A stretch of 44,513 nucleotides of DNA from Escherichia phage Gluttony. Position numbers and translations under genes: made by a program. The DNA is taken from sequence record NC_031113.1. One strand, written 5' to 3'. Positions 966 through 42,352 of the stretch are shown here, piece by piece (position 1 is the stretch's first letter; every line of letters starts with the position of its first letter). The notes under the pieces are model-generated. The model was not told the origin of the DNA, did not search any database, and worked only from the letters and a program-made list of their open reading frames with translations.

Positions 966-1470
966 ATCGCCCCGACGAGTTAACTATAGTGCAACCAATA
1001 GGTTGGTTGCAAGTAAATTTTGCAACGTTTATCGCATAAATTTTCGAGACCAGATCGCTGCACGCCCGTCGAATGGCCGCGATGTTCTTCGGGCAGTCTT
1101 CAATGATGACCAGTTCCGATACGTCCGCATAGCAGACCATTTTGAACACGGCGCACGCTTTAAACTCTGGCGGCGGGGTATCGTCCAGCATGTGGCGCAT
1201 AAACAACCGGCCTACGGGGAATACTTCCAATTGCTCGACGGTAGTCTCCCAGCATTCTCGCTGCCGGTTGGTCAGATACGCGATCTCGAAGCCTTGCTCT
1301 TTGTACATGGTCAGCAGCGGCAGCATATCCATGTTCAGATCTTCGCGTATATGCGCTTTGTGCCACTTCGCCCAAAAGGTGGATTTTGTTTTTATACCTG
1401 GCACCAGGTCGGCACGCGCATCGCTTGAACCATTAATAACGCCATCAAGATCACAAATCAGTAGTTTCAT
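955..1470 (-). CDS. HAD-superfamily phosphatase-like protein
   Basis: N-terminal LICDLDGVI matches the HAD motif I (DxDG) pattern. Confidence 0.5.
   Translation of the reverse strand: MKLLICDLDGVINGSSDARADLVPGIKTKSTFWAKWHKAHIREDLNMDMLPLLTMYKEQGFEIAYLTNRQRECWETTVEQLEVFPVGRLFMRHMLDDTPPPEFKACAVFKMVCYADVSELVIIEDCPKNIAAIRRACSDLVSKIYAINVAKFTCNQPIGCTIVNSSGRYGP
984..1012 (-). promoter_or_regulatory. Sigma70-like promoter (TTGCAA-17-TATAGT) inside the palindrome TTGCAACCAATAGGTTGGTTGCAA
   Basis: -35/-10 spacing read on the minus strand; contains the recurring ATTGGTTGCA motif; lies inside the 3' end of the upstream ORF. Confidence 0.4.
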
Positions 1471-2655: not shown

Positions 2656-2684
2656 AATATAAGGCAACCAATATGACTATGCAA
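2656..2684 (-). promoter_or_regulatory. Sigma70-like promoter (TTGCAT-17-TATATT) built from two ATTGGTTGC motif copies
   Basis: Read on the minus strand upstream of the ATG at 2608. Confidence 0.4.
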
Positions 2685-2689
2685 CCAAT

Positions 2690-3705: not shown

Positions 3706-5126
3706 TTGCGCGCCTTCTTAGCTTTCATGTATTCCATCAAGTCGTCCTGAATATCCCGCTTACTGTCGCGACGCTCGGCGACCAGTTCGTCCAGTGTTCC
3801 GCGCGCCTGGATAATGTAGACGAATACCGGTCGAGGGTGCCCGGCCTGCATCTGGCGAACCGGCCCGATACGCTCAACGATCTGCGAAAAGTGCTCAAAG
3901 TTCCAGGTATCGGAGAAGATTGCCAGGTGATGACCGCCGTCCTGCAAGTTAAGGCCGTGGCCTGCCGATGCCGGGTGTGCAAACATGATGGGGATCTCAC
4001 CCCTGTTCCACGCTTCCATATCCTTATTGCCCTGCTTACCTTTACCCAACGCAACGCCGTGCGGAAATTTCTTCTTAAGTCGTGCCAGGTCATGCTTATA
4101 CTGATACGCAACGAGCAACGGCGCGCCGTTCAACTCCTCTACGATACTCTCCAGCGCGTCCAGCTTCGCGTCGTGAATCTTCACCCACTCGTCGGTCCGT
4201 TCGCCGTCTTCGTCCACCTTATACACGGCCCCGGATGCAAGCTGAAGGCACTTAATTGTCTTCGACGCCGCGTTCGCCGCTTCCACTGTTCCGCTTTCCA
4301 GTTCTGCAAATAGCTCGCTTTCAAACTGGTCATAAATCTTACGCGCTTTCTTCGGCAGGTCCACAACAACCGGCGTATAGATTGGCTTGTCGCACCCGAA
4401 GTATTCCGCCGCGTCAACGGTGAGGGATACATCTGACAGACGTTGTTGTATCTCTTTCTCGGAGTTCTTTAGCGGAGCGTGCTGCATAGTGAAGCTGCTA
4501 GGCTTAACAGGCTTGCTAATGAACCAGCGGTCGGTAAATGCCTTATAGCTACTGCCGAGGCGTTCGCCACCGTCGACAAACCACGTCTGACCCCATAAGT
4601 CTTTTAGCCCGTTTGGCGCTGGTGTGCCGGTAAGGTTAATCCAGCGCTTGACGTGTTTATGTGCAATCGCTGCCAGTGCGCGGGCGCGCTTGCTCCCCTG
4701 CTTGCTACGATAGCCTTTCAGCTTAGTCGATTCATCGGCAACAACGACCGTAAAGGGCCACGCATCGCCGTAATAGTCGACCAGCCACTCAACCACATCA
4801 TAGTTAACACAAACCACGTTAGCGTCGCTCTCCAGCGCTGCAATGCGGTCCTTCTCTGGACCAGTGCCGTCTACTACCAGCAGGGCTGGGAAGCGCCATT
4901 TCTCCTGCTCCGGGGGCCAGGTGCCGGACGCAACGCGCAGCGGGGCCAGCACCAGTACGCGGTCCTCCTGGTTGGACAGGATACCCGTCTGGAACATTTT
5001 ATTCAGCGCCCACATTGTCGCGCCGGTTTTACCCGATCCCATTGTCGCCCATATATTACATCGCTTATGCTTGAGGATGAACGCGGTTATCAACTTCTGA
5101 TATTCGCGGCGTCGGAATCGTGCCAT
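3702..5126 (-). CDS. Superfamily II (SNF2/DEAD-like) DNA helicase
   Basis: Walker A MGSGKTG, DEST box, helicase C motif HPASAGHGLNLQ; start placed at MARF (5126) after a GGCGGA RBS. Confidence 0.8.
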   Translation of the reverse strand: MARFRRREYQKLITAFILKHKRCNIWATMGSGKTGATMWALNKMFQTGILSNQEDRVLVLAPLRVASGTWPPEQEKWRFPALLVVDGTGPEKDRIAALESDANVVCVNYDVVEWLVDYYGDAWPFTVVVADESTKLKGYRSKQGSKRARALAAIAHKHVKRWINLTGTPAPNGLKDLWGQTWFVDGGERLGSSYKAFTDRWFISKPVKPSSFTMQHAPLKNSEKEIQQRLSDVSLTVDAAEYFGCDKPIYTPVVVDLPKKARKIYDQFESELFAELESGTVEAANAASKTIKCLQLASGAVYKVDEDGERTDEWVKIHDAKLDALESIVEELNGAPLLVAYQYKHDLARLKKKFPHGVALGKGKQGNKDMEAWNRGEIPIMFAHPASAGHGLNLQDGGHHLAIFSDTWNFEHFSQIVERIGPVRQMQAGHPRPVFVYIIQARGTLDELVAERRDSKRDIQDDLMEYMKAKKARK

Positions 5127-5130
5127 ATCT

Positions 5131-5364
5131 TTATTCCGCCTTTTTCCAGACTTCAGTTTCACTGTTCCAGTTCCTTTTTGTGGCGTCGTAGTTGGTGGCG
5201 TGTCCGACGTGGACACCGGTAGCCCGGAAGCTCTTAAATTTTTGCCAGCACACCGTCAACGGCAGCGGATCATTCATGCCTGCGATAAACCATACGCGAT
5301 CGCCCGGTTTACATTCGCCCAGCTTGGTGAGTCGGTAATGTTCTTTCATCGTCATGTCTCCCAA
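5131..5364 (-). CDS. Hypothetical protein, 77 aa
   Basis: ORF track. Confidence 0.4.
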   Translation of the reverse strand: MGDMTMKEHYRLTKLGECKPGDRVWFIAGMNDPLPLTVCWQKFKSFRATGVHVGHATNYDATKRNWNSETEVWKKAE

Positions 5365-5392
5365 AAATGGCGGGACAAGCCCGCCGTATTAA

Positions 5393-5566
5393 TTATTTTT
5401 GTTCTGCACGGTAGCGGCGCTGCCGTTCGCGCTCTTTTTTATTGCGGCACGATTTGCACTCTGCCCGATACCCGTCTGGACTTCGCGCAGTCTTACCGGT
5501 GTATTTGTGGAACTGGGATAGCGGCTTTACACAGCCGCAATTACTACAACGTTTTTCTTCAATCAT
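5393..5566 (-). CDS. Small zinc-ribbon protein
   Basis: CSNCGC...CKSC cysteine pairs; start at MIEEK with a GAGGA RBS. Confidence 0.45.
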   Translation of the reverse strand: MIEEKRCSNCGCVKPLSQFHKYTGKTARSPDGYRAECKSCRNKKERERQRRYRAEQK

Positions 5567-5885: not shown

Positions 5886-6514
5886 TGTCGGCTTTTCCTT
5901 ACGGCAGCGATGGCAGGTCCGATAAACTTCTTCATTTCGTCCGGGGTAAACCGATCCCCGCGGGCTATGTTGCACTCTACGCAGCACGGCACGCAGTTAT
6001 CTTTCGTATGGCCTACTGCGTTGTCGAGTCGGTCCGCGCCATTGTCGCCGGTGAATCCGCAGTATGCGCACGGCTGAGAAGTAAGGCGCAGCACGTCCTC
6101 TGTAGTAAGGTCGGTGTTTAGCCCCTTCCTTTCGTCTGCCTTACGGTACTGAAAGAGTTTATAGTAAGCGCGGATCTCTGGTGTCCGGTGGTTGTACTCG
6201 CGGCGTGACTTATTAGCGCACGATCGGCATTCTTTACGAATATGTGACCCGTTTGCTTGGCTTCCTGGCCGGAAGTTTTCCGGCGTGAGCGGCTTGCGCT
6301 CACCGCACGTACGACATGTTACGATCTCCCCGGTGTACTCTCGCCATACTTCTCTCGGCGGCGCGCCTCTTTCCTTATCCCGTCTCTCTTTCTTATATGC
6401 CGCCATGCATTTGGCGCACCACGACTGGCCCTTGTTGAAAGCGGACTCATCTTTACCCGTATTACAACGCCCACAATGTTTCATATACACCTCGAAAAAG
6501 AAAACGCCAGACAA
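5882..6514 (-). CDS. HNH endonuclease with N-terminal zinc-finger repeats
   Basis: CAYCGF...GH...N..CCVECN HNH-type motif. Confidence 0.7.
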   Translation of the reverse strand: MSGVFFFEVYMKHCGRCNTGKDESAFNKGQSWCAKCMAAYKKERRDKERGAPPREVWREYTGEIVTCRTCGERKPLTPENFRPGSQANGSHIRKECRSCANKSRREYNHRTPEIRAYYKLFQYRKADERKGLNTDLTTEDVLRLTSQPCAYCGFTGDNGADRLDNAVGHTKDNCVPCCVECNIARGDRFTPDEMKKFIGPAIAAVRKSRQ

Positions 6515-9841: not shown

Positions 9842-9937
9842 TTTCCAATTCCTCATTTCACATGTATCGGGGTTATTAGAAGCCACCCCGTCCGGCTTGG
9901 TTGCTAATGTACTTGGTTGCGTTTCCGCGGTCAAGTG

Positions 9938-12579: not shown

Positions 12580-12775
12580 GGTATATCTCCGATTGGTTAA
12601 GTTTAGGTGTCGGCAGTTAACTTCGTCGGTGGCCTTAACATATTGCCAGGTTACGCGTTCTCCCGTTCGGGTAGTGGACCTGGTTATATAATCACGGTTG
12701 GGAATCCTGACACTTCGATCCGGCCCCTGCGTTGCCCCTCTCCAGTTTGCGTCCTGCATCCTGTCGACGGAGTGA

Positions 12776-12805
12776 ATGATAGATTGGTTGCAGGATGGGT
12801 GTCAA
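12776..12805 (-). promoter_or_regulatory. Leftward early promoter (TTGACA-18-TATCAT)
   Basis: Consensus -35 read on the minus strand, about 190 nt upstream of the ATG at 12579. Confidence 0.5.
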
Positions 12806-12816
12806 CAACTAATTTC

Positions 12817-12851
12817 AAAAAAAAAGCGCCGAGGCAAAATGCGACGGCGCT
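12817..12851 (-). terminator. Orphan minus-strand intrinsic terminator in the divergent control region
   Basis: AGCGCCG/CGGCGCT stem followed by nine T on the minus strand. Confidence 0.45.
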
Positions 12852-12921
12852 AACCAATAAGAGACAATGAGACGGGAATTATTATTACACGCGTGCGCGC
12901 CCGTTTCAATATCCAAAGGAT

Positions 12922-12950
12922 TTGACACCATGCAGTTTTAGGTGTAGTTT
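12922..12950 (+). promoter_or_regulatory. Rightward early promoter (TTGACA-17-TAGTTT)
   Basis: Perfect -35 hexamer about 35 nt upstream of the ATG at 12982. Confidence 0.5.
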
Positions 12951-12981
12951 CGTTGGTCATTAACCAACAGGAGACTGAATT

Positions 12982-13311
12982 ATGAATATCAAAGAAGCAA
13001 TTGAAGTGTTATCTAATGCAATCCGCGGCGAAGCGGGTAAATCCTGGTATTACACAAATGCGGTGGATACTCTGTTATTTGAAGTGTCCAGATTATCGCG
13101 TGCTGAGAAGGAGCTTACCGCGAAGCTGGAATTGCTCAACGGCACGGCAGCAAGCAAGCTGCAAAAACACAATGAAGAAATGGAAGAATACAAAAAACAG
13201 GTTATCCGTCTACGTGAGGAAGGTAAATCCTGGGCGATGATTGCCGAGTTGACCGGAATTAATCAGAGCACAGTGCGCTCCTGGGTACGCAATAATAAAA
13301 CTTCTAAGTAA
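12982..13311 (+). CDS. HTH DNA-binding protein, putative transcriptional regulator
   Basis: C-terminal KSWAMIAELTGINQSTVRSWV helix-turn-helix; coiled-coil middle. Confidence 0.5.
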   Translation: MNIKEAIEVLSNAIRGEAGKSWYYTNAVDTLLFEVSRLSRAEKELTAKLELLNGTAASKLQKHNEEMEEYKKQVIRLREEGKSWAMIAELTGINQSTVRSWVRNNKTSK

Positions 13312-13321
13312 GGCCACGGCA

Positions 13322-15586
13322 ATGAGCTTAATTAAATTCGCTGTAACAAGACCCGCTAAAAAAGGCGAAAAAGCCAGGGCGGAAAACTTCCAGATGACGA
13401 CCGATGAATTTTTCGAATTTATCAAAGATGCGAAAGAGATATCGTCGGTGCATATCAACAAGACGGAAGATAAAGCCGAGTATGCGCGCCGCAAGCGTAA
13501 GGCCGATGGCATCGTAGCGTATACCAGTGACGGCTTACGCCGCAAGACCAGTGCGGTGGACCGCTCGATCCTGTTCTTCGATATTGACCGTACCGACACC
13601 CGCACCCTACGCCGCTGCCGTAAGGCTTTCATCGACGCGGGGCTGGAGCACGTATTTCACACCACAACCGGCGACCGCCACCCGCTGAAAGGCGGCACGC
13701 GTTGCGCTCGTTTCCTGGTGCTCACCGACAAGCCTGTACCGGCTGAAGACCTGGGCCGCGTCCAGTACGCACTATTACACCAACTGGGCCTGTCAGATGT
13801 GGACTTCGATGATTGTACGAAAGACACAAACCGCCTGATGTACCTGCCACACCAGCAGTCTGTTATTAAGTGCCACTACGGCAAGCGTGCCCGCGTCCGT
13901 CGTCTGCTTCGCCTGGCGGATAAGTTGGGCGTGGAGAAGGAGGAAGTACGCCGCGAGCTTACCCAGGGCGACGACGCAGTGGCAGACGGCATTCTGGACT
14001 GGTGCTTCCAGGCAGGATTCGAGGAGTTATCTTCCGGTCGCGGTTATGAAGTGCCGTGCCCGAACGAACATCTGCACAGCGGCGAAGGGTCGACGGCTAT
14101 CATGGTCAAGGATGGCGAGATCCGTTTCAAGTGTATGCACACCGGCAACGAGTGTTGCTCGGAACTGAACAGACACCAGCACCTGGCGCTACGTCTTATC
14201 GGGATCCCGGACCACCTGAACGTCGAGCCGCACAACATGTCACGTAAGCAAATCGCCGCCATCCTTCCGGGACTGGACGATGAGGAAGTGGAATCGTGCT
14301 ATGAACATATCGTTGATGCGGTCGGAGACGGCGACGAGTACGGCGTGTGTACTGATGCAGACCTGGACAACGAGCCGGTCGCACTGTTCAGTAAGCACGA
14401 CCCGATCATCGAAGGCCTGGTCAACTTCAAATCGACCTGGTATCTCGCCGGTGAGTCGAACATTGGCAAGTCGTTCTACGTGCTGGGCCAGATGGCGTCA
14501 GTATCTGCCGGTATTCCGTTCGGCGGTGCGAAGGTCGTCCAGTCTCATTGCTTCTATTTCGATGCGGAAGGTGGTGAGGCCTCCAACCAGCGTAAAGAAG
14601 CACTGCAGATCAAATATGAGCACGACCTGGACAAGCTGCACATTATCGATCTGCAATCACGCGGCTGGGATATCACCAGCAAATCCGGCTTGCGTGAAGT
14701 TATCAGCTTCATCAACCGCACCGCTAACGGCGAGCCGGTTGGCCTGGTGGCGTTCGACTCACTCAACCAGACTGTTGCGCTGCGGTCCGCCGATGCAAAA
14801 CCGTTCGACGAGAATAACGCCAGCGATATGGGTGAAGTGGTCAAAGCGCTGAAGGCCATTGCGGAAAATACAGGCGGCAGTGCGGGCGTCATCCACCACC
14901 CGGCGAAGGGTGCAAACGGCAGCAGATCTCCCCGTGGGTCCGGCGCGCTGCATGGCGCTGTCGATTCTGCGTTCTTCCTGGAACAGCCGGACGACAACCA
15001 GCCAGGTCAACTCAACCTGTATCACGAAAAATCCCGTAACGGCATCAAGCAAGCGCCGCGCGGCTTCGTCCTGCTCAAGTGCAAGGTTAAGGTGGATCTC
15101 CGCAAGTCCGAGGCGTTCGAAGCCCACCAGTCCACCAGCACCGGGCCGGACTTCGGTGACGTCGTTGCCGGTTGGGACGTCAAGCCGATTGCCTCCACGC
15201 CACGCGACGAGACTCTTTACCTCGTACCGGTCGCCCTGGCACCGTTCGCCATTGAGCAGGCAAAGGCCGCTGGCAAGGCCGCAGTTAAGGAAGAGAACGC
15301 CGCAGGACCGCGCAACGAAAAAGAGAAAGTGCTTTATGCAGCGCTGGAAAAACTGATGGAAGATAACCCGGACCATACCGGATTCAGCAAATCGGCAATT
15401 GTCCGCCAGGCTGGGCTTGCGAAAGGTGGCACATCGACGAAGGCAATTGACGATATGGTCGAGCGCGGCGTGCTCGGTTTTTATACCGATCCGCACACCG
15501 GGGCCATCTATGGGTCGTCGAATATCGTCATCAAAACGAAGATACCCATCACGCTTTCGGCGACCGATGACGACTTAAAAGATTAA
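13322..15586 (+). CDS. Primase-polymerase (AEP-like) fused to a RecA/DnaB-like ATPase; replication initiator candidate
   Basis: FFDIDRTD acidic motif, Cys/His zinc cluster, Walker A GESNIGKS, Walker B FYFDAEGG. Confidence 0.7.
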   Translation: MSLIKFAVTRPAKKGEKARAENFQMTTDEFFEFIKDAKEISSVHINKTEDKAEYARRKRKADGIVAYTSDGLRRKTSAVDRSILFFDIDRTDTRTLRRCRKAFIDAGLEHVFHTTTGDRHPLKGGTRCARFLVLTDKPVPAEDLGRVQYALLHQLGLSDVDFDDCTKDTNRLMYLPHQQSVIKCHYGKRARVRRLLRLADKLGVEKEEVRRELTQGDDAVADGILDWCFQAGFEELSSGRGYEVPCPNEHLHSGEGSTAIMVKDGEIRFKCMHTGNECCSELNRHQHLALRLIGIPDHLNVEPHNMSRKQIAAILPGLDDEEVESCYEHIVDAVGDGDEYGVCTDADLDNEPVALFSKHDPIIEGLVNFKSTWYLAGESNIGKSFYVLGQMASVSAGIPFGGAKVVQSHCFYFDAEGGEASNQRKEALQIKYEHDLDKLHIIDLQSRGWDITSKSGLREVISFINRTANGEPVGLVAFDSLNQTVALRSADAKPFDENNASDMGEVVKALKAIAENTGGSAGVIHHPAKGANGSRSPRGSGALHGAVDSAFFLEQPDDNQPGQLNLYHEKSRNGIKQAPRGFVLLKCKVKVDLRKSEAFEAHQSTSTGPDFGDVVAGWDVKPIASTPRDETLYLVPVALAPFAIEQAKAAGKAAVKEENAAGPRNEKEKVLYAALEKLMEDNPDHTGFSKSAIVRQAGLAKGGTSTKAIDDMVERGVLGFYTDPHTGAIYGSSNIVIKTKIPITLSATDDDLKD

Positions 15587-15700
15587 AATTTGCGCGCATT
15601 GGTCGCCGATATGGGGATTCCCATATCGCTAGACGATTAAATTTTGCGCGCATTGGTTGCCATTTTGAGTGTTTTTATCTGGTCGTATTGGTTGCCGTGT
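15584..15700. repeat. Direct repeats TTAAA(A)TTTGCGCGCATTGGT(C/T)GCC x2 flanking the palindrome CGATATGGG-GATT-CCCATATCG
   Basis: Read directly downstream of the primase-helicase stop; a third ATTGGTTGCC copy near 15687. Confidence 0.6.
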
Positions 15701-15744
15701 AGTGTGAATATAGTGAATAGTTATGCAGTTTTATTGCATAAAGT

Positions 15745-15902
15745 AAGCGGGACAAAAAGCGGGACAAACAAGGGGCGGGACAAAGCGGGACAGCACCCCC
15801 GTCCCGCCACGGATGGCGCGGCTTCCAGAGGAGCGGGACAGCGGGACAGCACCCCAGTCTTTCAGACTAGACGGGGGTCAATGGCCCCCCTCGTCTGAGA
15901 CT
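15745..15902. repeat. GCGGGACA iteron-like array A with 3' hairpin module; putative origin or regulatory cassette
   Basis: At least six GCGGGACA copies at about 11-bp spacing, then CAGTCTTTCAGACTAGACGGGGG...CCCCCCTCGTCTGAGACTG; near-identical to 31965..32124. Confidence 0.6.
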
Positions 15903-16062
15903 GAATAAAATCCGGGGATTGCAAAATACACGGCAGCATGATGCTAAGTGCGGTCGTCGATGAACTAGGCAACCAATGCAGGTTGTATTATGCTGAGTGA
16001 AAATGCGGTTTGCAGTCACAGCAGATAGCGATCAACTTTTTCATGCGCGTGATTAATATTGG

Positions 16063-16091
16063 TTGCACCCTGCCTGGCGCCCTGCTATATT
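16063..16091 (+). promoter_or_regulatory. Sigma70-like promoter (TTGCAC-17-TATATT) formed by two TATTGGTTGCAC copies
   Basis: Spacing counted directly; 29 nt upstream of the ATG at 16120. Confidence 0.5.
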
Positions 16092-16119
16092 GGTTGCACA
16101 CCAACAAGAGGACTGAACG

Positions 16120-16425
16120 ATGAAAGCATTAATCTGGAATTACACATCAGCGGTCGCAGCGCTCTATGAAGCGAAGCACACAAACGGCAACGCCGACCAC
16201 GCACGCCAGGCTGTAATGTTCGCGCAGCAGGCAATCTTTGCAGCGTTCGACAACATGGGCGTCAGCCTGGATGAACTGGAACCATTGCGTGTGGCAATCT
16301 GCGAGTATGCGATGAAATTCGCCCGTGAGCGTCTTGCGTACCGGTTTGGCATCGGAGAGACGGCAGTGACTAACATCGCTCGCATCACGGCTCAGCGTGA
16401 GCTACACGCCTTACTTGCGAAATAA
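16120..16425 (+). CDS. Hypothetical early protein, 101 aa
   Basis: ORF track; RBS AGAGGA. Confidence 0.5.
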   Translation: MKALIWNYTSAVAALYEAKHTNGNADHARQAVMFAQQAIFAAFDNMGVSLDELEPLRVAICEYAMKFARERLAYRFGIGETAVTNIARITAQRELHALLAK

Positions 16426-16434
16426 GGGGCTAAA

Positions 16435-16704
16435 ATGGCACGTAGACGCGCTAAATGGTTATCCTGGTATATTCCCCTGCATAGCATCCGTTTATGGGCG
16501 CAGAATGCGATTGAGGGTGATTCTGTGTTCTGGAGCTATCGGGATGACGTCAAGCCGCTGACGCAGACCAAAATGCTGCACCAGTTCATGAACGAACACG
16601 GACTGCCGGTGAAAACATCATTGCAACCAATCGGCATCCGTATTACATTACGCCGTAAGCCAATCGTTGCGCAGGTTGGCAAACACAAGAGACTGAGCAA
16701 ATGA
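16435..16704 (+). CDS. Hypothetical early protein, 89 aa
   Basis: ORF track. Confidence 0.45.
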   Translation: MARRRAKWLSWYIPLHSIRLWAQNAIEGDSVFWSYRDDVKPLTQTKMLHQFMNEHGLPVKTSLQPIGIRITLRRKPIVAQVGKHKRLSK

Positions 16705-16853
16705 CACCAATGCAAAGAGCGCTAATGGCTGGATTCTCGCAGAAGTTTATTTCAGTAGACGACTGCATAGCTGATTATGAGATGGACGGCATCGCTACGG
16801 TATGCGATGGCGACTATAAGACTGTTGACGAGATCGAGGAGACTGAGCAATGA
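16701..16853 (+). CDS. Small hypothetical protein, 50 aa
   Basis: Hand-translated ORF (MTPMQRALMAGF...) with overlapping ATGA junctions at both ends. Confidence 0.3.
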   Translation: MTPMQRALMAGFSQKFISVDDCIADYEMDGIATVCDGDYKTVDEIEETEQ

Positions 16854-17404
16854 AATTACTATTCCGCAATAAACATAACGGGCTATTCTTCACCCCGATC
16901 GAAGTGCTGCCGAACTTTGTGCGCATGTACCATGAAGCCAGCGACCGCGTATACTGGTACAGGAAAGACACCCTGCATGAGCATTTGCAGGTTGTGCATC
17001 ACGACGTACGAGTAGGTGATGTGCTGCGTTGTGATGGCAATGACTACACCTGGGTCGTGAAGTCAGTCGGGAAGGAATGGATTACTATCGACAGCACTCT
17101 GGTTGCGGGCGCAACAATAAACCCCGCCACCCTGGTGAACTACACCCGCGTAGGCCGGAACTATGCACCTAAGCGCCCTGGCGTCGAAGCGAAAGCGATT
17201 ACCCGTACGGAGCACCCATATACCAAATACGACGAGAACAAGGTGCGCCAGCATATCGACAACGCCCGGAAAGCCATCACCCAGCAATGTGATGCGATGC
17301 GCCTGGCTAATCTGGACGCAGAGCGCTTTGGCATTGGTGTGATCCTGGTCTACCCGGACGGCAGCATGAAGTCTACCGATCCGCGCTCGGTGATTCAGAA
17401 ATGA
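16850..17404 (+). CDS. Hypothetical early protein, 184 aa
   Basis: ORF track; RBS GAGGAG. Confidence 0.5.
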   Translation: MKLLFRNKHNGLFFTPIEVLPNFVRMYHEASDRVYWYRKDTLHEHLQVVHHDVRVGDVLRCDGNDYTWVVKSVGKEWITIDSTLVAGATINPATLVNYTRVGRNYAPKRPGVEAKAITRTEHPYTKYDENKVRQHIDNARKAITQQCDAMRLANLDAERFGIGVILVYPDGSMKSTDPRSVIQK

Positions 17405-17541
17405 GTGCGACGGTCCGTGATATGCTAATGCATAACCGCTTTGAGGTTGGCGGTCGTGTATTCCGTAACTACTTCGTTGCGCGCGCCTGGGCGCGCCACA
17501 TTGGCAAACCAGAGGGGGCAATACGATGCTACACGATTTGA
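17401..17541 (+). CDS. Small hypothetical protein, 46 aa
   Basis: Hand-translated; start overlaps previous stop. Confidence 0.3.
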   Translation: MSATVRDMLMHNRFEVGGRVFRNYFVARAWARHIGKPEGAIRCYTI

Positions 17542-17813
17542 TATATTGGTTTGGATTGGGGTGCGCGACACTCTTTGCCACGGTGCTGGCGCTGTTGGTA
17601 TGGGTGTTCCTGATTTGGCCCGCGGTGGAAGCAGCCAGCATTACCCGCATGACGTTCCAGATATACAAGCGCCGTGGCATCACGGAGCACCCTACCAGGT
17701 TGCGCATGTGGTGGCTATGGTATCGCGATATGATCGGCGGGCGAATGTTCGAGGCCGTCCGATCGGAAGGGTGGGAGTGGAAAGGCGTCGGCAAGTGGTC
17801 CATTTTCGATTAA
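17526..17813 (+). CDS. Membrane protein, 95 aa
   Basis: Hydrophobic N-terminus LGCATLFATVLALLVWVFLIW. Confidence 0.4.
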   Translation: MLHDLIYWFGLGCATLFATVLALLVWVFLIWPAVEAASITRMTFQIYKRRGITEHPTRLRMWWLWYRDMIGGRMFEAVRSEGWEWKGVGKWSIFD

Positions 17814-17830
17814 TTATGCAAGCGTGATAT

Positions 17831-17865
17831 AGTCCCAGTGAGCTAAAACTTACTGGGACTTTTTT
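17831..17865 (+). terminator. Intrinsic terminator directly abutting the holin start codon
   Basis: 9-bp stem AGTCCCAGT/ACTGGGACT, 12-nt loop, then TTTTT and ATG at 17866. Confidence 0.5.
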
Positions 17866-18156
17866 ATGGATAAGCTAAACGAGTGGTTATTCGCCCTTGC
17901 GTGTCTTGCTGGTGGCTTCGTAGGCGCACGCATTCATGGCGAGGCAACGAAAGGGCCGCTAAACTTCGTGTTATATATCGTAGTTGGCTTCCTGTGTGCC
18001 ATCTTTGGTGCGCCAGCTATCGCCGAGTGGGCTGGCTTATCTGGCGAGCGCACTGTCGCCGGTTTGGGCTTCGTAACTGCAATCTTCTGGATGCCAATCG
18101 CCGACCGGGTCAGGGGGACTATTGCGTCGTTCCGACTTCCGGGGGGTGCAAAATGA
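17866..18156 (+). CDS. Holin
   Basis: 96 aa with three hydrophobic segments, directly upstream of the endolysin. Confidence 0.6.
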   Translation: MDKLNEWLFALACLAGGFVGARIHGEATKGPLNFVLYIVVGFLCAIFGAPAIAEWAGLSGERTVAGLGFVTAIFWMPIADRVRGTIASFRLPGGAK

Positions 18157-20292: not shown

Positions 20293-20421
20293 CGGCAACC
20301 AGTAATCCTCCCAGCCTGCCGATTTGGTGGGCTTTTTTGTGCCTGTTATAATCCCCTCAGATGGCAGGGCCGTCTCTTATGTTGCCGATGGTCGGCGCAT
20401 ATGCACAAAAGGGCTTATATC

Positions 20422-25424: not shown

Positions 25425-26189
25425 TTAGCGCGGAATACCGCAAATCTCGTTTAGTGTTTTCACGTCCAGCGCCACCGCCGTGGACTTCGGCTTGTCCGGG
25501 TAAGGAATGAACTGTTCAACTTCAGGCCACGCCTTGATCAGCTTCTTATCTGTATTGTGCATATCCAGCACGCCGGTAACAGTTAGTTTGAACGCGTCAT
25601 ACTTAGCACGCAACTCACGGCGGGCCTTGTCGTTACGGTCCAGGCGCTTGCAGAAATCATGACCCGCCGGGTAGTCTATACGACCGCGTGGCTTATATAT
25701 CGGCAGCGCTTTCCCGTCGTCGTCGACTTCGCACACTGACGCTAACAAAATTTCCTCATACCCTGGCACAATATCGCCGAGATCGGGGGATAGTTTATTC
25801 ATGTATTTATACTCCCAGTATCCTCGATGTACTCGGAATCGGTATCCGTCTCCGCTCAATGACACGGTACGGACGTTTCCGCCTGCGTTGATTTCGAAAG
25901 TGGCGTCGTAAACGCTGCCTATACCATATGGGTTGTCGTCGTCATGTCTATACGTCGCCTTGTTGGTGTATACGCTTACTCCGTACATCTGCGACGGGTC
26001 ATCGCCGATTGCTTTAATGCGCGAGAGTAGCTCGGCGAAAGTGCGAATGCCTTCCGGCATACAGTCCAGCGTAATGGCGTACGCCAGATTTCGAGAGTCC
26101 ATCATGATTGATTTGGCTTCGGTCGCGATTTCGTGGTCGCGCAGGATGTTAGCCAGAATCTGGTTTTTAATGTCTTTCGTCAGTCTCAT
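25425..26189 (-). CDS. Moron: 254-aa protein of unknown function on the opposite strand inside the head gene block
   Basis: Start at MRLTKDIKNQ with GAGGA RBS; own promoter and terminator; no recognisable motifs. Confidence 0.6.
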   Translation of the reverse strand: MRLTKDIKNQILANILRDHEIATEAKSIMMDSRNLAYAITLDCMPEGIRTFAELLSRIKAIGDDPSQMYGVSVYTNKATYRHDDDNPYGIGSVYDATFEINAGGNVRTVSLSGDGYRFRVHRGYWEYKYMNKLSPDLGDIVPGYEEILLASVCEVDDDGKALPIYKPRGRIDYPAGHDFCKRLDRNDKARRELRAKYDAFKLTVTGVLDMHNTDKKLIKAWPEVEQFIPYPDKPKSTAVALDVKTLNEICGIPR

Positions 26190-26218
26190 TTGTGTGTCCT
26201 CGTTGTTGGTGTGCAACC

Positions 26219-26248
26219 AATATAGTGCAACCAATACGAGGATTGCAA
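26219..26248 (-). promoter_or_regulatory. Promoter for the moron (TTGCAA-18-TATATT) with two GTGCAACCAATA copies
   Basis: Leader and RBS near-identical to the 16063 promoter cassette (TATATTGGTTGCACACCAACAA-GAGGA). Confidence 0.5.
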
Positions 26249-30335: not shown

Positions 30336-31061
30336 ATGGGTTATCAACTCCCCAACGGGTCCAGCGTCCAGATCGGGTCCGTATTAGGCAGCGGCATCGC
30401 TGTTACGGCAGCTACCAACGCCACCGCATCAATCTCTGACCTTACGCAAGGTTGCGTAATTACCTGCGCGGCATCGCATGGCCTGGTTGTTGGCGACGTT
30501 GTTATGTTCACTAAAACCCCGTGGGTCCGAGCGCTTAACCGCGCATTCATCGTGGGTAAAGTAGCCGAGAACGACGTGACGCTGGCGCGCTTCGACTCCT
30601 CTGACGTCACAAAATACCCGACCGGCGCTTTCAGCGTAGGCACTCCGGGCGAAGTGGTGAAGGTGTCGAGCTTTATCGACTTCCCTTTCATTACTAACGT
30701 TGCCGTGTCGGGTGGCGACCAGCAGACTACTACCTTCCAGCCGTTGCAGGTGAACACCGCAATCAGTCTTAACACCACGAAAAACCCGTTGGTACAGACT
30801 TACACCTTCACCCACGACGAAGAAGACCCGATCCGCCCAATCCTGGAAGACCTGGACGACACACAGAAAACCACTGTGATCAAGTTCACTAACCCAGCGG
30901 CAGCAAGTGGCAAAGGTGAAATTCGTATTTACCCGGCTAAGGTATCTTTCCAGAAGATTCCTTCCGCTGAAGTAAACAACGTGGAAACGGTACAGTCTAC
31001 TCTGACCATGCAGTCTGATATGGTTATCTACCGTAAGGATCTGGTCGAGGCATTGTCTTAA
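30336..31061 (+). CDS. Major tail (tube) protein
   Basis: 241 aa immediately upstream of the chaperone pair; followed by a terminator. Confidence 0.65.
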   Translation: MGYQLPNGSSVQIGSVLGSGIAVTAATNATASISDLTQGCVITCAASHGLVVGDVVMFTKTPWVRALNRAFIVGKVAENDVTLARFDSSDVTKYPTGAFSVGTPGEVVKVSSFIDFPFITNVAVSGGDQQTTTFQPLQVNTAISLNTTKNPLVQTYTFTHDEEDPIRPILEDLDDTQKTTVIKFTNPAAASGKGEIRIYPAKVSFQKIPSAEVNNVETVQSTLTMQSDMVIYRKDLVEALS

Positions 31062-31091
31062 TTTGGTCGCTTAAATAGCGAGTGTTAATAT

Positions 31092-31116
31092 GGGGCCAGC
31101 ACGGCCCCTTTTTTAT
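31092..31116 (+). terminator. Intrinsic terminator or attenuator after the major tail gene
   Basis: GGGGCC-AGCAC-GGCCCC followed by TTTTTTA. Confidence 0.65.
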
Positions 31117-31810: not shown

Positions 31811-32124
31811 AGCGGGACAAAGCGGGATGTCCCGTTTTGTCCCGCCTCTGTAAAACTGCATATCTAATCACTCCCATTGCATAAACCAAAAGAGGGACAG
31901 GCGGGACGTCCCGTTTTGTCCCACCCCATAAATGTGCATATCTATTCGCATTTCGTGCATAAAACAAACGGGACAAAAAGCGGGACAGACCAGGGGCGGG
32001 ACAAAGCGGGACAGCACCCCGTCCCCGCCAGTGCTGCCGCTGGTTTCAGCCGATCGGGACAGCGGGACAGCACCCCAGTCTTTCAGACTAGACGGGGGTC
32101 TGGCACCCCCCTCGTCTGAGACTG
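31811..32124. repeat. GGGACA iteron-like array B with palindromic units and the same 3' hairpin module as array A
   Basis: About 14 GGGACA copies including palindromes GGGACAAAGCGGGA-TG-TCCCGTTTTGTCCC; 32055..32124 near-identical to 15833..15902. Confidence 0.65.
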
Positions 32125-32192
32125 CATAGGGTTTGTTTGAAATTCGCTGATACAATGTCAATCGGCAACTGAATAAAAAAGGGGACTGCATA

Positions 32193-37605: not shown

Positions 37606-40600
37606 CGATTATCTACGACGTCACAGGGCATAAAGGCGGCGGCGGCAAACAGCACACCCCACAGGAGACGCCAGATAGCCTGCATTCGCTGGCTAAAATC
37701 CGCATCTTGCTTGCGCTGGGGGAAGGGGAATTCGAAAGTATTACCAGCGCCAGCGAATTGCGGCAGCGTGTTTACCTTGATGGAACACCGATCCAGAACG
37801 CGGACTTGTCCGAAAACTTCCCCGGCGCGCGGGTGGAGTTCCGCCCAGGCACACAGCACCAGGACGTGATCCACGGATTTTCAGCGGTGGAAAGTGAGCA
37901 ATCCATCGGTGTAAAACTGGAAAACGGCACGCCGTGGGTGCGCCAGATTAACGACACCAGTTTGGACGCCGTGCGCATTCGCATCGGCATTCCGGCCCTG
38001 TACACAAACGAAGATAATGGCGACCTGGTGGGCGGGCGCATCGACTATAAGATCGTTGTGTATACGGATAACGCCGACCCGCGTGAGTTCAGATTCGCCG
38101 CCGTTGGTAAAACAATGTCGCTGTATGAGCGCGACCACCGCATCGAATTACCGCCGAACGTGAATACCGGCTGGCGCGTGGAGGTGCACCGCATAACGGC
38201 AGACTCCACATCGGCGAAAGTGGTTAATGATATCCGGGTGCAGTCCATCACTGAGATTATTGACGCCCGCCTGCGTTACCCGCTAACCGCGCTGTTGTTT
38301 GTGGAGTTCGACGCCAAAGCGTTCCAGAACATCCCGCGCGTGTCCATCAAGTGCAAAGGCCGCAAAGTTCTAATACCGAACAACTACGACCCGATTAATC
38401 ATACCTATTCCGGGGACTGGGACGGCACGTTTAAACGCGCATGGACGGATAACCCTGCGTGGCACTGGTACGATATTTGTATTACTGAGCGCTTCGGCCT
38501 CGGTCGGCGTATCAAACCGCAAATGTTAAACCGGTACGCGCTCTACCAGATTGCGCAGCGCTGCGATCAGTTGGTCAGCGACGGCAACGGTGGTCGAGAA
38601 ATCCGCTTTAAGAATGATATGTACATTCAGTCACAGACGGATGCCTGGACCGTGCTTAAGGATTTAGCCGCCATCTTCGCCGGAATGACCTGGTGGGGCA
38701 ACCAGATGTTGAATATCGTCAGTGACCAACCGGTCGCAGCAGTGTCGCACACTATCACCAACGCCTCGGTTATTGATGGTCGATTCGACTACGCGTCCGG
38801 TAGCCAGAAAACTCGGTATTCCACATTCGCGGTAGCATACGGCAACCCGAAGAACCACTATGAAGATGCCATCGCAACGGGGCAACGTGTCGAACTGGTA
38901 CGCCGCCATAAGATTAACCGTCTTGATATAACGGCGATCGGCTGTACGCGTGAGTCAGAAGCGCAACGACGTGGGCACTGGGCGCTAATCTCCAACCAGC
39001 TTGACCAGCAAGTTAGCTTTAAGGTGGGCATGGAGGGACTTTTCTTTATTCCTGGTAGCGTAGTCGCGATCGCCGATACAAACATTTCTGGCGGCTTCGA
39101 GACACGCGGCGGTCGCCTGTTGTCGGACCCTGGCACGCGTACCGTGCTTAACACGGACAGCGAAATCACATTCCGCCCAGGTGATAAATTCCTGGTACGC
39201 ACCGATAGTGGTAATGTAGAGACTCGCGAGATCGCCAGCGTCAACGGCAACAAGGTTACGCTAAAAACCGCACTGGACGCCGACCCGATTCCTGATCAGC
39301 CGTTTTGCGTCGATGGCAACGATATCCAGTTGCAGAAGTTCCGCATCACCGACCTGGAATATGACGACTCTACGAGCACTTTCTCGGTGCGCGGGATTGA
39401 ATACAACGATAGCAAATATGATGCCGTTGATAATGGCGCGCGCCTAGACCCGGGCATCTTTACGCAAGTGCCTGACGGGGTAATGAAGGGGCCGGAATCC
39501 GTGACCATCACCCCGTCGCAGATTTCATCGCAAGGACAGCTAATCACCAACGTGGATATTGTATTCCCTCCGGTGAAGGATGCCGTGGTGTATGAAATCC
39601 AGTGGAGGCGTACCAGCCTTCAGAATATGGAAATCCAGTGGGGTAACGACTGGGTGAATATCCCACGCACGGCGTCGAACGGCGCGCACATCCCTAACGT
39701 GTTCTCCGGTAACTACCAGGCACGCGTCCGCGCGATCGGTATGGGCGAGATTTCATCTCCGTGGGTGTCGTCCGCCATCACGCCGGTGGAAGGTCGTCTC
39801 GGTGGGCTTAACGCACCAATCATCACCAACGCTATTTCGGGCCTTCACCAGATCTTGTGGAAGTGGAACCACAACAACGCCGCTACTGATATCTCGTACA
39901 CCGAGCTTGAAGTGCGCAAGACCGGTGAGACTGAATGGAAATTCCTTACCAACGTCCCATATCCGGGGGCGGAGTATGCGCAAACATCGCTGGAGTTCGG
40001 AATTTACCAGCAGTTGCGCGCCCGTGTAGCGGATAAAATCGGCAACCGGTCGGACTGGTCGGCCCCGTTTGAAGGGCAGGTGAGTGACAAAGTTGACGAG
40101 TACATGAAGGGGCTTGATGACGAGTTCTTGACTTCCGAGGATGGTAAACACTTCCAGGAAGCTATTAACACGATCCCGCAAGGCATTTATGAGTCAATGC
40201 TCACCGACGCCCAGCAGCTATTCAACGCCCGCGCCGAGTACAAAGGGATTTATGCGGAAATCAAGGTGACGTATAACGTGGCGGCGGACGCCCACAAGGC
40301 GGTCGCTCAACTGGAGACGTTGATCGGCACGCGACTTGATGACGCGGAAGCTGCGATCCGCACGTTGCAGACCGCGCAGAGCACACAGGAACAAGCGTTC
40401 GCCCAGTACCAGCAAACTGTTGCCGCTAAGTTCGGGGAACAGGAAGCCGCCATCCAGCAGGTACAAACGGCAACCGCAGACGTGGCGGGAGCGCTGGCGG
40501 AATATAAGACCCAGGTCGCTACACAGTTCGGTCAGCAGTCCGCCGCTATCGAGCAGAAGATGACGTCCTCGTTTAACCACTCTGGTGGTAGCGCCACGTA

Positions 40601-42036: not shown

Positions 42037-42060
42037 AAAGCCCCGAAAGGGGCTTATTTG
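42037..42060. terminator. Bidirectional intrinsic terminator
   Basis: AAGCCCC-GAAA-GGGGCTT with T-rich flanks. Confidence 0.6.
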
Positions 42061-42272
42061 CAGGTTGTGCTTTTGAAATGGTCTACAGACACGTACTGGA
42101 AGCTAAACGGATAACCCGCCCTTAGCATTTTATGCCCGGAGAAGTCCGCAACACCATACACAGGTACCGCATAATCCATGCCGCTATTCTGGTATGTGGC
42201 GTCGCAGACTTTAGCGGGCATGTTGGCACAACCGGACAAAAGAACCGCACAAATCATAATTAAAGTTTTCAT
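42054..42272 (-). CDS. Moron: small secreted lipoprotein, candidate superinfection-exclusion (receptor-blocking) protein
   Basis: MKTLIMICAVLLSGC signal peptide with lipobox; AGGAGA RBS; own promoter and terminator; opposite strand between tail genes and tail fibre. Confidence 0.65.
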   Translation of the reverse strand: MKTLIMICAVLLSGCANMPAKVCDATYQNSGMDYAVPVYGVADFSGHKMLRAGYPFSFQYVSVDHFKSTTCK

Positions 42273-42303: not shown

Positions 42304-42331
42304 GTATTACACCGCTCAACCAGGATTGCAA
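42304..42331 (-). promoter_or_regulatory. Promoter for the lipoprotein moron (TTGCAA-16-TAATAC) containing AATTGGTTGCA
   Basis: Hexamer spacing read on the minus strand. Confidence 0.45.
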
Positions 42332-42352
42332 CCAATTTATGAGGATTTAGCT

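Follow-up and report, generated by a model that had tools for sequence, protein, structure and literature searches.

A dispersed ten-base box at early and moron promoters of Escherichia phage Gluttony and its candidate phage-encoded binder

The 44,513-nucleotide sequence of Escherichia phage Gluttony (NC_031113.1), hereafter the window, is essentially the complete genome of a phage of E. coli belonging to the genus Dhillonvirus, whose members are described as lytic. It carries a recurring, asymmetric box of 10 bases, ATTGGTTGCA (broader form (A/G)TTGGTYGC(A/C/G)), which is strongly over-represented, overlaps sigma-70-like promoters and has been maintained in the course of evolution. This genus-wide regulatory box is real. 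It is proposed here to be the operator of a trans-acting, phage-encoded protein that would control one early and moron regulon, the binder most likely being gp12982, a 109-residue helix-turn-helix (HTH) protein encoded at the divergent early control region; this proposal as a whole is given about an even chance. An earlier note on this DNA had raised the possibility that a phage factor binds the motif, and such binding is the best reading of the data presented below, owing to the variable register and orientation of the boxes and to their conservation.

Enrichment of the box and its place in promoters

The degenerate form ATTGGTYGCM is found in 15 exact copies over both strands, compared to 0.53 +/- 0.66 expected from 100 dinucleotide shuffles, none of which reached 15, and ATTGGTTGCA with at most one mismatch gives 16 matches compared to 3.7 expected. 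Besides, no other 9-mer or 10-mer of the window exceeds its second-order Markov expectation as strongly as ATTGGTTGC(A), and 12 of the 15 exact copies fall in non-coding DNA, which makes up only 6.7% of the sequence (binomial estimate about 4e-12). The earlier note, made from the letters alone, had described a recurring motif and named a frequency equal to that of a shuffled background among the findings that would refute it; the frequency is far above that background. The coordinates of the note were right to within about 5-15 bp, although the pair given as 16047-16092 really lies at 16058-16067 and 16089-16098, and its list lacked the intragenic copy at 16622-16631 (minus strand) and the weak pair at 9896-9905 and 9912-9921 (plus strand).

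Promoters were detected by a consensus scan together with a position weight matrix (PWM) scan of -35 and -10 elements. The boxes, palindromes and promoters concerned are as follows.

16058-16067, plus strand: box ATTGGTTGCA, whose TTGCA(C) is the -35 (16063-16068) of P16063 (TTGCAC-17-TATATT), with gene 16120-16425 downstream
16089-16098, plus strand: second P16063 box, covering the last 3 nucleotides of the -10 (TATATT, 16086-16091) and the predicted +1
16090-16104: palindrome TTGGTTGCACACCAA, whose left part is the second P16063 box
12805-12800 (-35, TTGACA) and 12781-12776 (-10, TATCAT), leftward: main early promoter P12805, or P_L (TTGACA-18-TATCAT)
12783-12792, plus strand: box, reversed, in the spacer of P12805 (about -23 to -14)
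12922-12927 (TTGACA) and 12945-12950 (TAGTTT), rightward: P_R, promoter of the HTH gene (TTGACA-17-TAGTTT)
12953-12967: palindrome TTGGTCATTAACCAA, just 3' of the P_R -10, a candidate autoregulatory site
9934-9906, leftward: P9934 (TTGACC-17-TACATT), with reversed boxes in the spacer and at +1
9896-9905 and 9912-9921, plus strand: weak reversed boxes CTTGGTTGCT and CTTGGTTGCG, respectively, flanking the -10 of P9934
5610-5619 and 5622-5631, minus strand: box pair 12 bp apart at P5626, ATTGGTTGCT covering the -35 and ATTGGTCGCA lying within the spacer
P5626: TTGCTG-17-TATAGT, with the Lar-like gene 5393-5566 downstream
2663-2672 and 2680-2689, minus strand: box pair 17 bp apart at P2684, one copy at the -35 and one in the spacer adjoining the -10
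P2684: TTGCAT-17-TATATT, upstream of gene 2144-2608
990-999 (minus strand) and 1002-1011 (plus strand, GTTGGTTGCA): everted pair TGCAACCAA-TAGG-TTGGTTGCA, inside the 3' end of gene 955-1470
P1012, minus strand: TTGCAA-18-TATAGT, with a reversed box on the -35 and a forward box in the spacer, upstream of gene 387-941
16622-16631, minus strand: reversed box over the -35 of P16621, within gene 16435-16704
16621-16649, plus strand: internal promoter P16621 (TTGCAA-17-TACATT)
26212-26221 and 26226-26235, minus strand: box pair 14 bp apart at P26248, one copy in the spacer and one over -10/+1
26206-26220: palindrome within the P26248 box-pair element
P26248: TTGCAA-18-TATATT, moron promoter of the reverse-oriented Nmad5 gene 25425-26189
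42327-42336, minus strand: box over the -35 of P42331, the promoter of cor (gene 42054-42272)

P12805 is the top promoter-like site of the window in both scans and points into the replication operon. Together with P9934, P1012 and P26248, it satisfies the consensus scan for sigma-70 promoters; P16063, P2684, P5626, P16621 and P42331 reach PWM scores of 9.5-12.6, but their -35 elements match the consensus at merely 3-4 of 6 positions. All nine of these, with hexamers 16-18 nucleotides apart, lie upstream of co-oriented genes, and a box is present in 8 of the 22 strongest promoter-like sites of the window. The concentration of the motif at sigma-70-like promoters, which the earlier note had pointed out, is therefore upheld for the early operons (replication and small genes) and for two reverse-oriented morons, Nmad5 and cor. 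The window also holds three exact TTGGT-N5-ACCAA palindromes, each of them just 3' of a -10 (P_R, P16063 and P26248).

Within these promoters, the register of the box varies. A forward box occupies -40 to -31, with TTGCA as the -35, in P16063, P2684, P5626 and P42331; it sits in the spacer (-28 to -14) in P5626, P2684, P1012 and P26248, and over -10/+1 (-9 to +1) in P16063 and P26248. Reversed boxes are found on the -35 (P1012 and P16621), in the spacer (P12805 and P9934) and at +1 (P9934), and the registers observed are -40 to -31, -34 to -25, -28 to -19, -24 to -14, -9 to +1 and -6 to +4. Where a TTGCN hexamer derives from the motif, a strong -10 follows at 16-18 nucleotides in 5 of 20 cases, compared to 4 of 363 for the other TTGCN hexamers (Fisher p = 2.6e-5). 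The use of TTGCA as a -35 is thus supported in several promoters, corresponding to about one third of the copies, and does not extend to the remaining registers. In the same line, the idea that the second copy of a pair often supplies the -10 applies to P16063 and P26248, where only the ATT of the box overlaps TATATT, and fails for P2684, P5626 and P1012, whose second copies are in the spacer. Nor is it the case, as had been stated, that every copy precedes a gene of matching orientation: the boxes at 12783, 1002, 16622 and 9896/9912 are reversed relative to their promoters, and four ATTGGTYGCC copies between 15598 and 15977 are at no recognisable promoter. The box at 12783 is better read as an operator in P12805 rather than as a rightward -35, since P12805 is the strongest site and is leftward, while the rightward gene has its own P_R.

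The placement of the boxes might alternatively reflect nothing but a promoter class, in which an extended -35 or discriminator has been spread by duplication or in cassettes and is read by the host sigma-70 polymerase with no dedicated factor. TTGCA indeed matches the start of a -35, a good -10 stands at 16-18 nucleotides for 5-8 copies, P1012, P26248 and P16063 share flanks beyond the box, which suggests paralogy, and an identical cassette precedes different morons. Nevertheless, about half of the copies are out of the -35 register (spacer, -10/+1 or reversed), reversed copies lie inside consensus TTGACA and TTGACC promoters that have no need of them, four copies are at no promoter, and position and copy number differ from lineage to lineage, the 8-10-mer itself being retained. 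This explanation is consequently considered unlikely, and the variable register and orientation argue instead for an operator.

Conservation and turnover of the box

The same box placement is seen in 14 IMG/VR loci and in phages EP23, HK578 and Ioannina, the last of these being the named Dhillonvirus that diverges most. In alignments of P12805, P9934 and P5626, the boxes are unchanged while the promoter spacers are free to vary: the P12805 box is invariant in 11 genomes and both GCAACCAAG copies of P9934 in 13. Similarly, the -35 box of P16063 is invariant in 8 distinct genomes although the 17-bp spacer varies, the P2684 boxes are retained with a different inter-box spacer in EP23, HK578 and Ioannina, and the P_R palindrome is invariant in 9 genomes in which the promoter spacer and the ribosome-binding site region vary. 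At P16621, 14 genomes agree in both TTGCAACCAAT and the -10, which form an island amid coding sequence that is split into two alleles. Finally, the cor promoter of Ioannina has two boxes and a TATATT -10.

At greater distance, in the L266 lineage (about 71% nucleotide identity), boxes are found at the orthologous promoters with altered number, spacing and position. Its P_L has two tandem reversed boxes instead of one, the pair at its P16063 orthologue is spaced by 16 bp and not 31, and its P_R bears a canonical reversed box in place of the palindrome. Such maintenance combined with turnover points to selection on the binding sites of a trans-acting factor, as simple promoter inheritance would not produce this pattern. 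The box is present in 9 of 37 strong promoter-like sites in Ioannina and in 11 of 30 in HK578, compared to 1 of 23 and 0 of 41, respectively, in two outgroup phages with about 45% primase identity to the window, Smarc3 (Serratia) and VSiA (Salmonella; Cornellvirus). No copy of the 8-mer TTGGTTGC occurs anywhere in VSiA. A scan of viral contigs for paired boxes was dominated by chance matches and by an unrelated 27-bp coding tandem repeat, and is uninformative on taxonomic spread.

The moron promoter P26248 belongs to a two-box cassette which, in different phages, fronts different reverse-oriented cargo. The window (25425-26248) and Ioannina have an Nmad5-domain protein there, EP23 (5926-6483) has a gene whose annotation reads 'DNA polymerase III beta subunit', and HK578 (5078-5536) has an unrelated 140-residue protein.

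Two palindromes of the window differ between genomes by their centres. The TAGG centre of TGCAACCAA-TAGG-TTGGTTGCA (990-1011) is CCTA in EP23, HK578 and Ioannina, and the loop of the hairpin TTATGCA-GTTTTAT-TGCATAA (15717-15737) is ATAAAAC in many genomes. These flips suggest inversion of whole palindromes, via cruciform formation or template switching.

The candidate binder and its proposed mode of action

The gene map of the window was transferred from phage Pride, to which the entire window is 98-100% identical; over the region 14000-18000, the Escherichia phages Lust and Pride both match it at 100% identity.

12579 down to 387, leftward: early/replication operon, continuing across the window start
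12580-12981: divergent control region
12982 onwards, rightward: operon beginning with the 109-residue protein gene and the primase/helicase gene
12982-13311, plus strand: 109-residue HTH protein gene, which opens the rightward early operon and lies at the divergent control region
15587-16119: intergenic repeat region
16120-17813: small genes, with lysis and structural genes downstream
25425-26189, reverse-oriented: moron, Nmad5-domain gene, within the structural region
42054-42272, reverse-oriented: moron, cor (superinfection-exclusion lipoprotein), within the structural region

The 109-residue protein is the only HTH protein found among about 50 proteins scanned against Pfam and PHROG. HTH_23, Sigma70_r4_2 and HTH_28 all match above their Pfam cut-offs (29.1 versus 25.7 bits for Sigma70_r4_2), and the AlphaFold2 model (predicted local distance difference test score, pLDDT, 84) consists of a long helix followed by a C-terminal three-helix HTH. 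The latter superposes on the HTHs of resolvase, IstA, LuxR/NarL and sigma region 4 at 0.4-1.2 A; the foldseek matches are generic small HTHs with E > 0.6, such weak E-values being expected for a 35-residue domain, and a sequence search of the PDB with this protein was uninformative. The C-terminal 60 or so residues are near-invariant in all homologues found, including HK578 and metagenomic variants, whereas the N-terminal 45 or so are hypervariable, with many unrelated variants (the HK578 form has 142 residues), and may be under diversifying selection or swapped as a module. In the phage collection, where Dhillonvirus accounts for 157 matching records, the protein occurs in records of this genus only; it was not found in Smarc3 or VSiA, and in Smarc3 the equivalent position is occupied by an XRE-family regulator. 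At the +1 of the HTH gene's own promoter stands a conserved palindrome or box. Being the sole HTH protein detected, with a near-invariant HTH, genus-restricted and encoded at the divergent early region, the 109-residue protein is the best candidate and the most likely binder of the box, its features being consistent with a Cro-like early regulator.

In the proposed mechanism, the operators would lie within the core sequences of some ten sigma-70 promoters, namely the two divergent early promoters, promoters internal to each of the two early operons, and two moron promoters. Given that a box overlaps its promoter at the -35, the spacer, the -10 or the +1, the bound protein would compete with the host RNA polymerase or reposition it, and the whole of early and moron transcription would thereby be tied to the level of a single factor. 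The simplest sign of this regulation would be negative feedback or early shut-off, as with Cro, with possible activation where the box supplies a weak -35 (3 of 6 matches).

Several observations weigh against this proposal. The four copies that bracket the iterons without a promoter (see below) point to an additional or different role, and the variety of pair spacings (12, 14, 17, 31 and 35 bp, plus an everted pair) misfits a rigid dimer. Both the box and the HTH are invariant in all homologues found, which leaves no covariation to compare, and the real binder could be a small protein without Pfam or PHROG function. In addition, TTGGTTGC occurs 13 times in Smarc3, compared to 1.95 expected, in the absence of the Dhillonvirus HTH protein. 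Finally, no binding, transcription start site, RNA-seq or other expression data for Dhillonvirus were found in the literature.

The Smarc3 enrichment would fit a host transcription factor or nucleoid protein of enterobacteria that binds the box and is exploited by the phage, and the TTGGT...ACCAA half-sites are reminiscent of GntR-family operators such as that of PdhR. However, VSiA infects Salmonella and has no TTGGTTGC at all, the palindromes are spaced by N5 and not by N3 as in the PdhR type, and the Smarc3 motif is found in only 1 of 23 strong promoters. A paired-box scan of 185,579 species genomes gave scattered unrelated taxa at about a chance-level count, with no Enterobacterales among the matches listed, which speaks weakly against a host regulon. 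A host factor is thus regarded as highly improbable. Within Smarc3, only one TTGGTTGC copy touches a promoter and several sit in coding repeats; at 39418-39532 and 30740-30779, four copies lie in the 3' end of the primase/helicase gene and one reversed copy lies at the +1 of a consensus promoter, whose position is orthologous to that of P5626.

The box might also be a positive element, in which case a sigma-4-like HTH bound at the -40 to -31 box would replace or recruit sigma region 4 at promoters with a poor -35, and reversed boxes would at the same time repress P_L, P9934 and P_R; the outcome would be delayed-early or middle activation, for which T4 MotA and lambda CII offer the comparison. 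The promoters do divide along such lines, one class having a -35 of 3-4 of 6 matches given by a forward box (TTGCAC, TTGCAT, TTGCTG and TTGCAA) and the other a consensus -35 (TTGACA and TTGACC) combined with either a palindrome at +1 or spacer boxes that are reversed. The Sigma70_r4_2 match mentioned above and foldseek matches that include a sigma factor and LuxR-type activators are in keeping with this idea, although small HTH domains match many Pfam families together. Moreover, most of the promoters that would be activated have a further box, located in the spacer or at -10/+1, where a bound protein is expected to block the polymerase, and their -10 elements (5 of 6 matches) are strong enough for factor-independent activity. 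A positive element is accordingly judged unlikely as well. An extended version, in which the 109-residue protein acts as a reader of the -35, activating forward-box delayed-early and moron promoters, repressing reversed-box immediate-early ones and being coupled to replication through the iteron copies, appears distinctly unlikely. If true, it would amount to a one-protein early-to-middle switch in a lytic siphovirus, and the hypervariable N-terminus might then be a surface under arms-race selection.

Regarding known systems, the arrangement of the proposed operators works most like the dispersed operators of P1 C1 and L5 gp71 and like lambda Cro, while standing outside those families. The C1 repressor of P1, which acts in lysogenic immunity, binds asymmetric 17-bp operators present in many scattered copies over promoters, in either orientation and sometimes paired. 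The box is likewise asymmetric, dispersed over unlinked promoters, in both orientations and partly in pairs, but it has 10 bp instead of 17, its binder is a candidate only, and the annotations show no integrase or CI-type repressor: none was found in those of Pride, SO-1, EP23 and HK578 or in Pfam scans. The gp71 stoperators of the temperate mycobacteriophage L5 are short, asymmetric sites with a -35-like hexamer, as the box is; they number about 20-30, are spread over the early promoter and intergenic gaps, all point the same way with respect to transcription and act by stopping elongation. A stoperator of this type was rejected, given that the boxes have both orientations, that nearly all copies are in core promoters and that the phage is not temperate. 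As in other sets of multi-copy asymmetric operators, the boxes are enriched (15 versus 0.53) and overlap promoters (8 of 22); temperate character is lacking. With lambda Cro/CI, the system shares a small HTH protein encoded first in the rightward operon next to divergent promoters, sites over the -35, -10 and +1, and a probable autoregulatory site at the promoter of this protein. Unlike in lambda, whose operators are 17-bp pseudo-palindromes in two clusters, the sites here are asymmetric 10-mers dispersed among some ten promoters, and the HTH belongs to the resolvase/LuxR/sigma-4 type instead of the Cro/CI type.

Other candidates were discarded. The box replaces the -35 before a good -10 in P16063, P2684, P5626 and P42331, as does the MotA box of T4 (9-10 bp), but its register varies whereas that of the MotA box is fixed (centred at -30), and T4 needs MotA plus AsiA, two families without a match in the Pfam and PHROG scans of the window proteins. 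A site of the lambda CII type (TTGC-N6-TTGC across the -35) disagrees with pairs that are 12, 14, 17, 31 or 35 bp apart or everted; a sigma-54 promoter (TGGCAC-N5-TTGCA) disagrees with TTGGTTGC, in which GG and GC are 2 and not 10 nucleotides apart, no pair having the -24/-12 spacing. Finally, a GntR/PdhR operator (TTGGT-N3-ACCAA) does not suit the three N5 palindromes or the boxes, most of which have no second half-site.

The box regulon is most likely an ordinary type of phage control which is new for Dhillonvirus in the literature searched: no description of the motif, of Dhillonvirus promoters or of a transcriptional programme was found in open-access PubMed Central and bioRxiv, and the GenBank entry of HK578 lists just three promoters, all of them consensus-type and located in the divergent region. 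Since phage operators common to many promoters are well known, the gain is mainly a new instance and not a new concept. Dhillonviruses are nonetheless common E. coli phages that are present in the BASEL collection and used in defence-system studies and as therapy candidates. For these, the box charts some ten promoters, and it offers both a candidate regulator and a one-factor regulon that can be tested. Furthermore, it reveals a conserved promoter cassette that drives variable moron cargo (Nmad5, the beta-clamp-like gene and cor), which is useful for engineering and for predicting the expression timing of anti-defence and exclusion genes.

Boxes around the iteron region and other features

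Two copies of a 175-bp direct repeat, 87.5% identical and dense in GCGGGACA iterons and inverted repeats, lie at 15735-15907, after the primase/helicase gene, and at 31956-32128, before the tape-measure gene. They are labelled 'region A/B' in the record of Sodalis phage SO-1, and the iteron of Ioannina differs (AACGGGACAA / GGGACGTCCC). Phage P4 has a two-site ori/crr arrangement, which this two-copy layout recalls. The boxes around region B are the following.

15598-15607, 15652-15661 and 15687-15696, plus strand: three ATTGGTYGCC boxes on the left flank of region B, just past the primase/helicase gene
15968-15977, minus strand: box ATTGGTTGCC on the right flank of region B

The boxes at 15598-15696 are associated with no convincing promoter, and the copy at 15598 is part of a 54-bp tandem duplication present only in some genomes. 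The sequence at 15650-15661 and that at the 15968-15977 box form a perfect 12-nucleotide inverted repeat, GCATTGGTTGCC / GGCAACCAATGC.

This bracket could mean that the boxes serve mainly in replication or packaging, for instance as sites for the primase/helicase or the small terminase, their overlap with promoters being secondary. Besides the 3+1 copies around the iterons, the idea can draw on the L266 lineage, where the bracket after the primase gene persists although it encloses unrelated sequence, on the four copies in the 3' end of the Smarc3 primase/helicase gene, and on several GenBank records (PTXU06, Zar3M, 101114B2 and PEC9) that are linearised at about 16018, the midpoint between the inverted boxes at 15968-15977 and 16058-16067. 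Yet two thirds of the copies are in core promoters across 40 kb, at least 13 copies are in promoters elsewhere than after the primase/helicase gene, and in the window no boxes flank the sister region A (31956-32128). As for packaging, the 5' cos reported for phage EE09, ATCTTAAGGG (PMC10673088), matches best at 20353-20362, upstream of the small terminase gene, and not at about 16018. The small terminase is P22 gp3 / Sf6-like and looks like the headful-packaging type. A primary role in replication or packaging is therefore held to be very unlikely.

Two further elements were noticed in the divergent control region. The first is a leader of about 190 nucleotides (12580-12770, minus strand) between P12805 and the first leftward gene, which is about 99% conserved in 11 genomes, above coding DNA. 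One of its base pairs exists in three compensatory states (CCAGG/CCTGG, CCCGG/CCGGG and CCTGG/CCAGG), while the leader is predicted to fold no more stably than shuffled sequences (z = +0.8) and no Rfam match was found; it may be a structured leader or an element acting at the DNA level. Rfam and tRNA scans of the entire window likewise gave no matches. The second (12816-12909, minus strand) is a promoter-like TTGAAA-17-AATAAT with TG (12909-12881), followed about 30 nucleotides on by a strong hairpin and T9 terminator (12850-12816). It is conserved in all genomes aligned and could yield a small RNA of about 55 nucleotides just upstream of P12805.

In the structural region, just past the major tail protein gene, TAATAT stands 17 nucleotides after TTTGGTCGCT, and a strong terminator hairpin comes next (31063-31108). 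This element, kept in EP23 and HK578, represents a weak box-like promoter or else a match arising by chance. Finally, G[CT]TGCCG(T) heptamers and octamers are strongly over-represented in the window (103 copies), and likewise in Smarc3 and VSiA; they show no strand bias relative to genes, and their excess probably has a compositional or codon-related cause.

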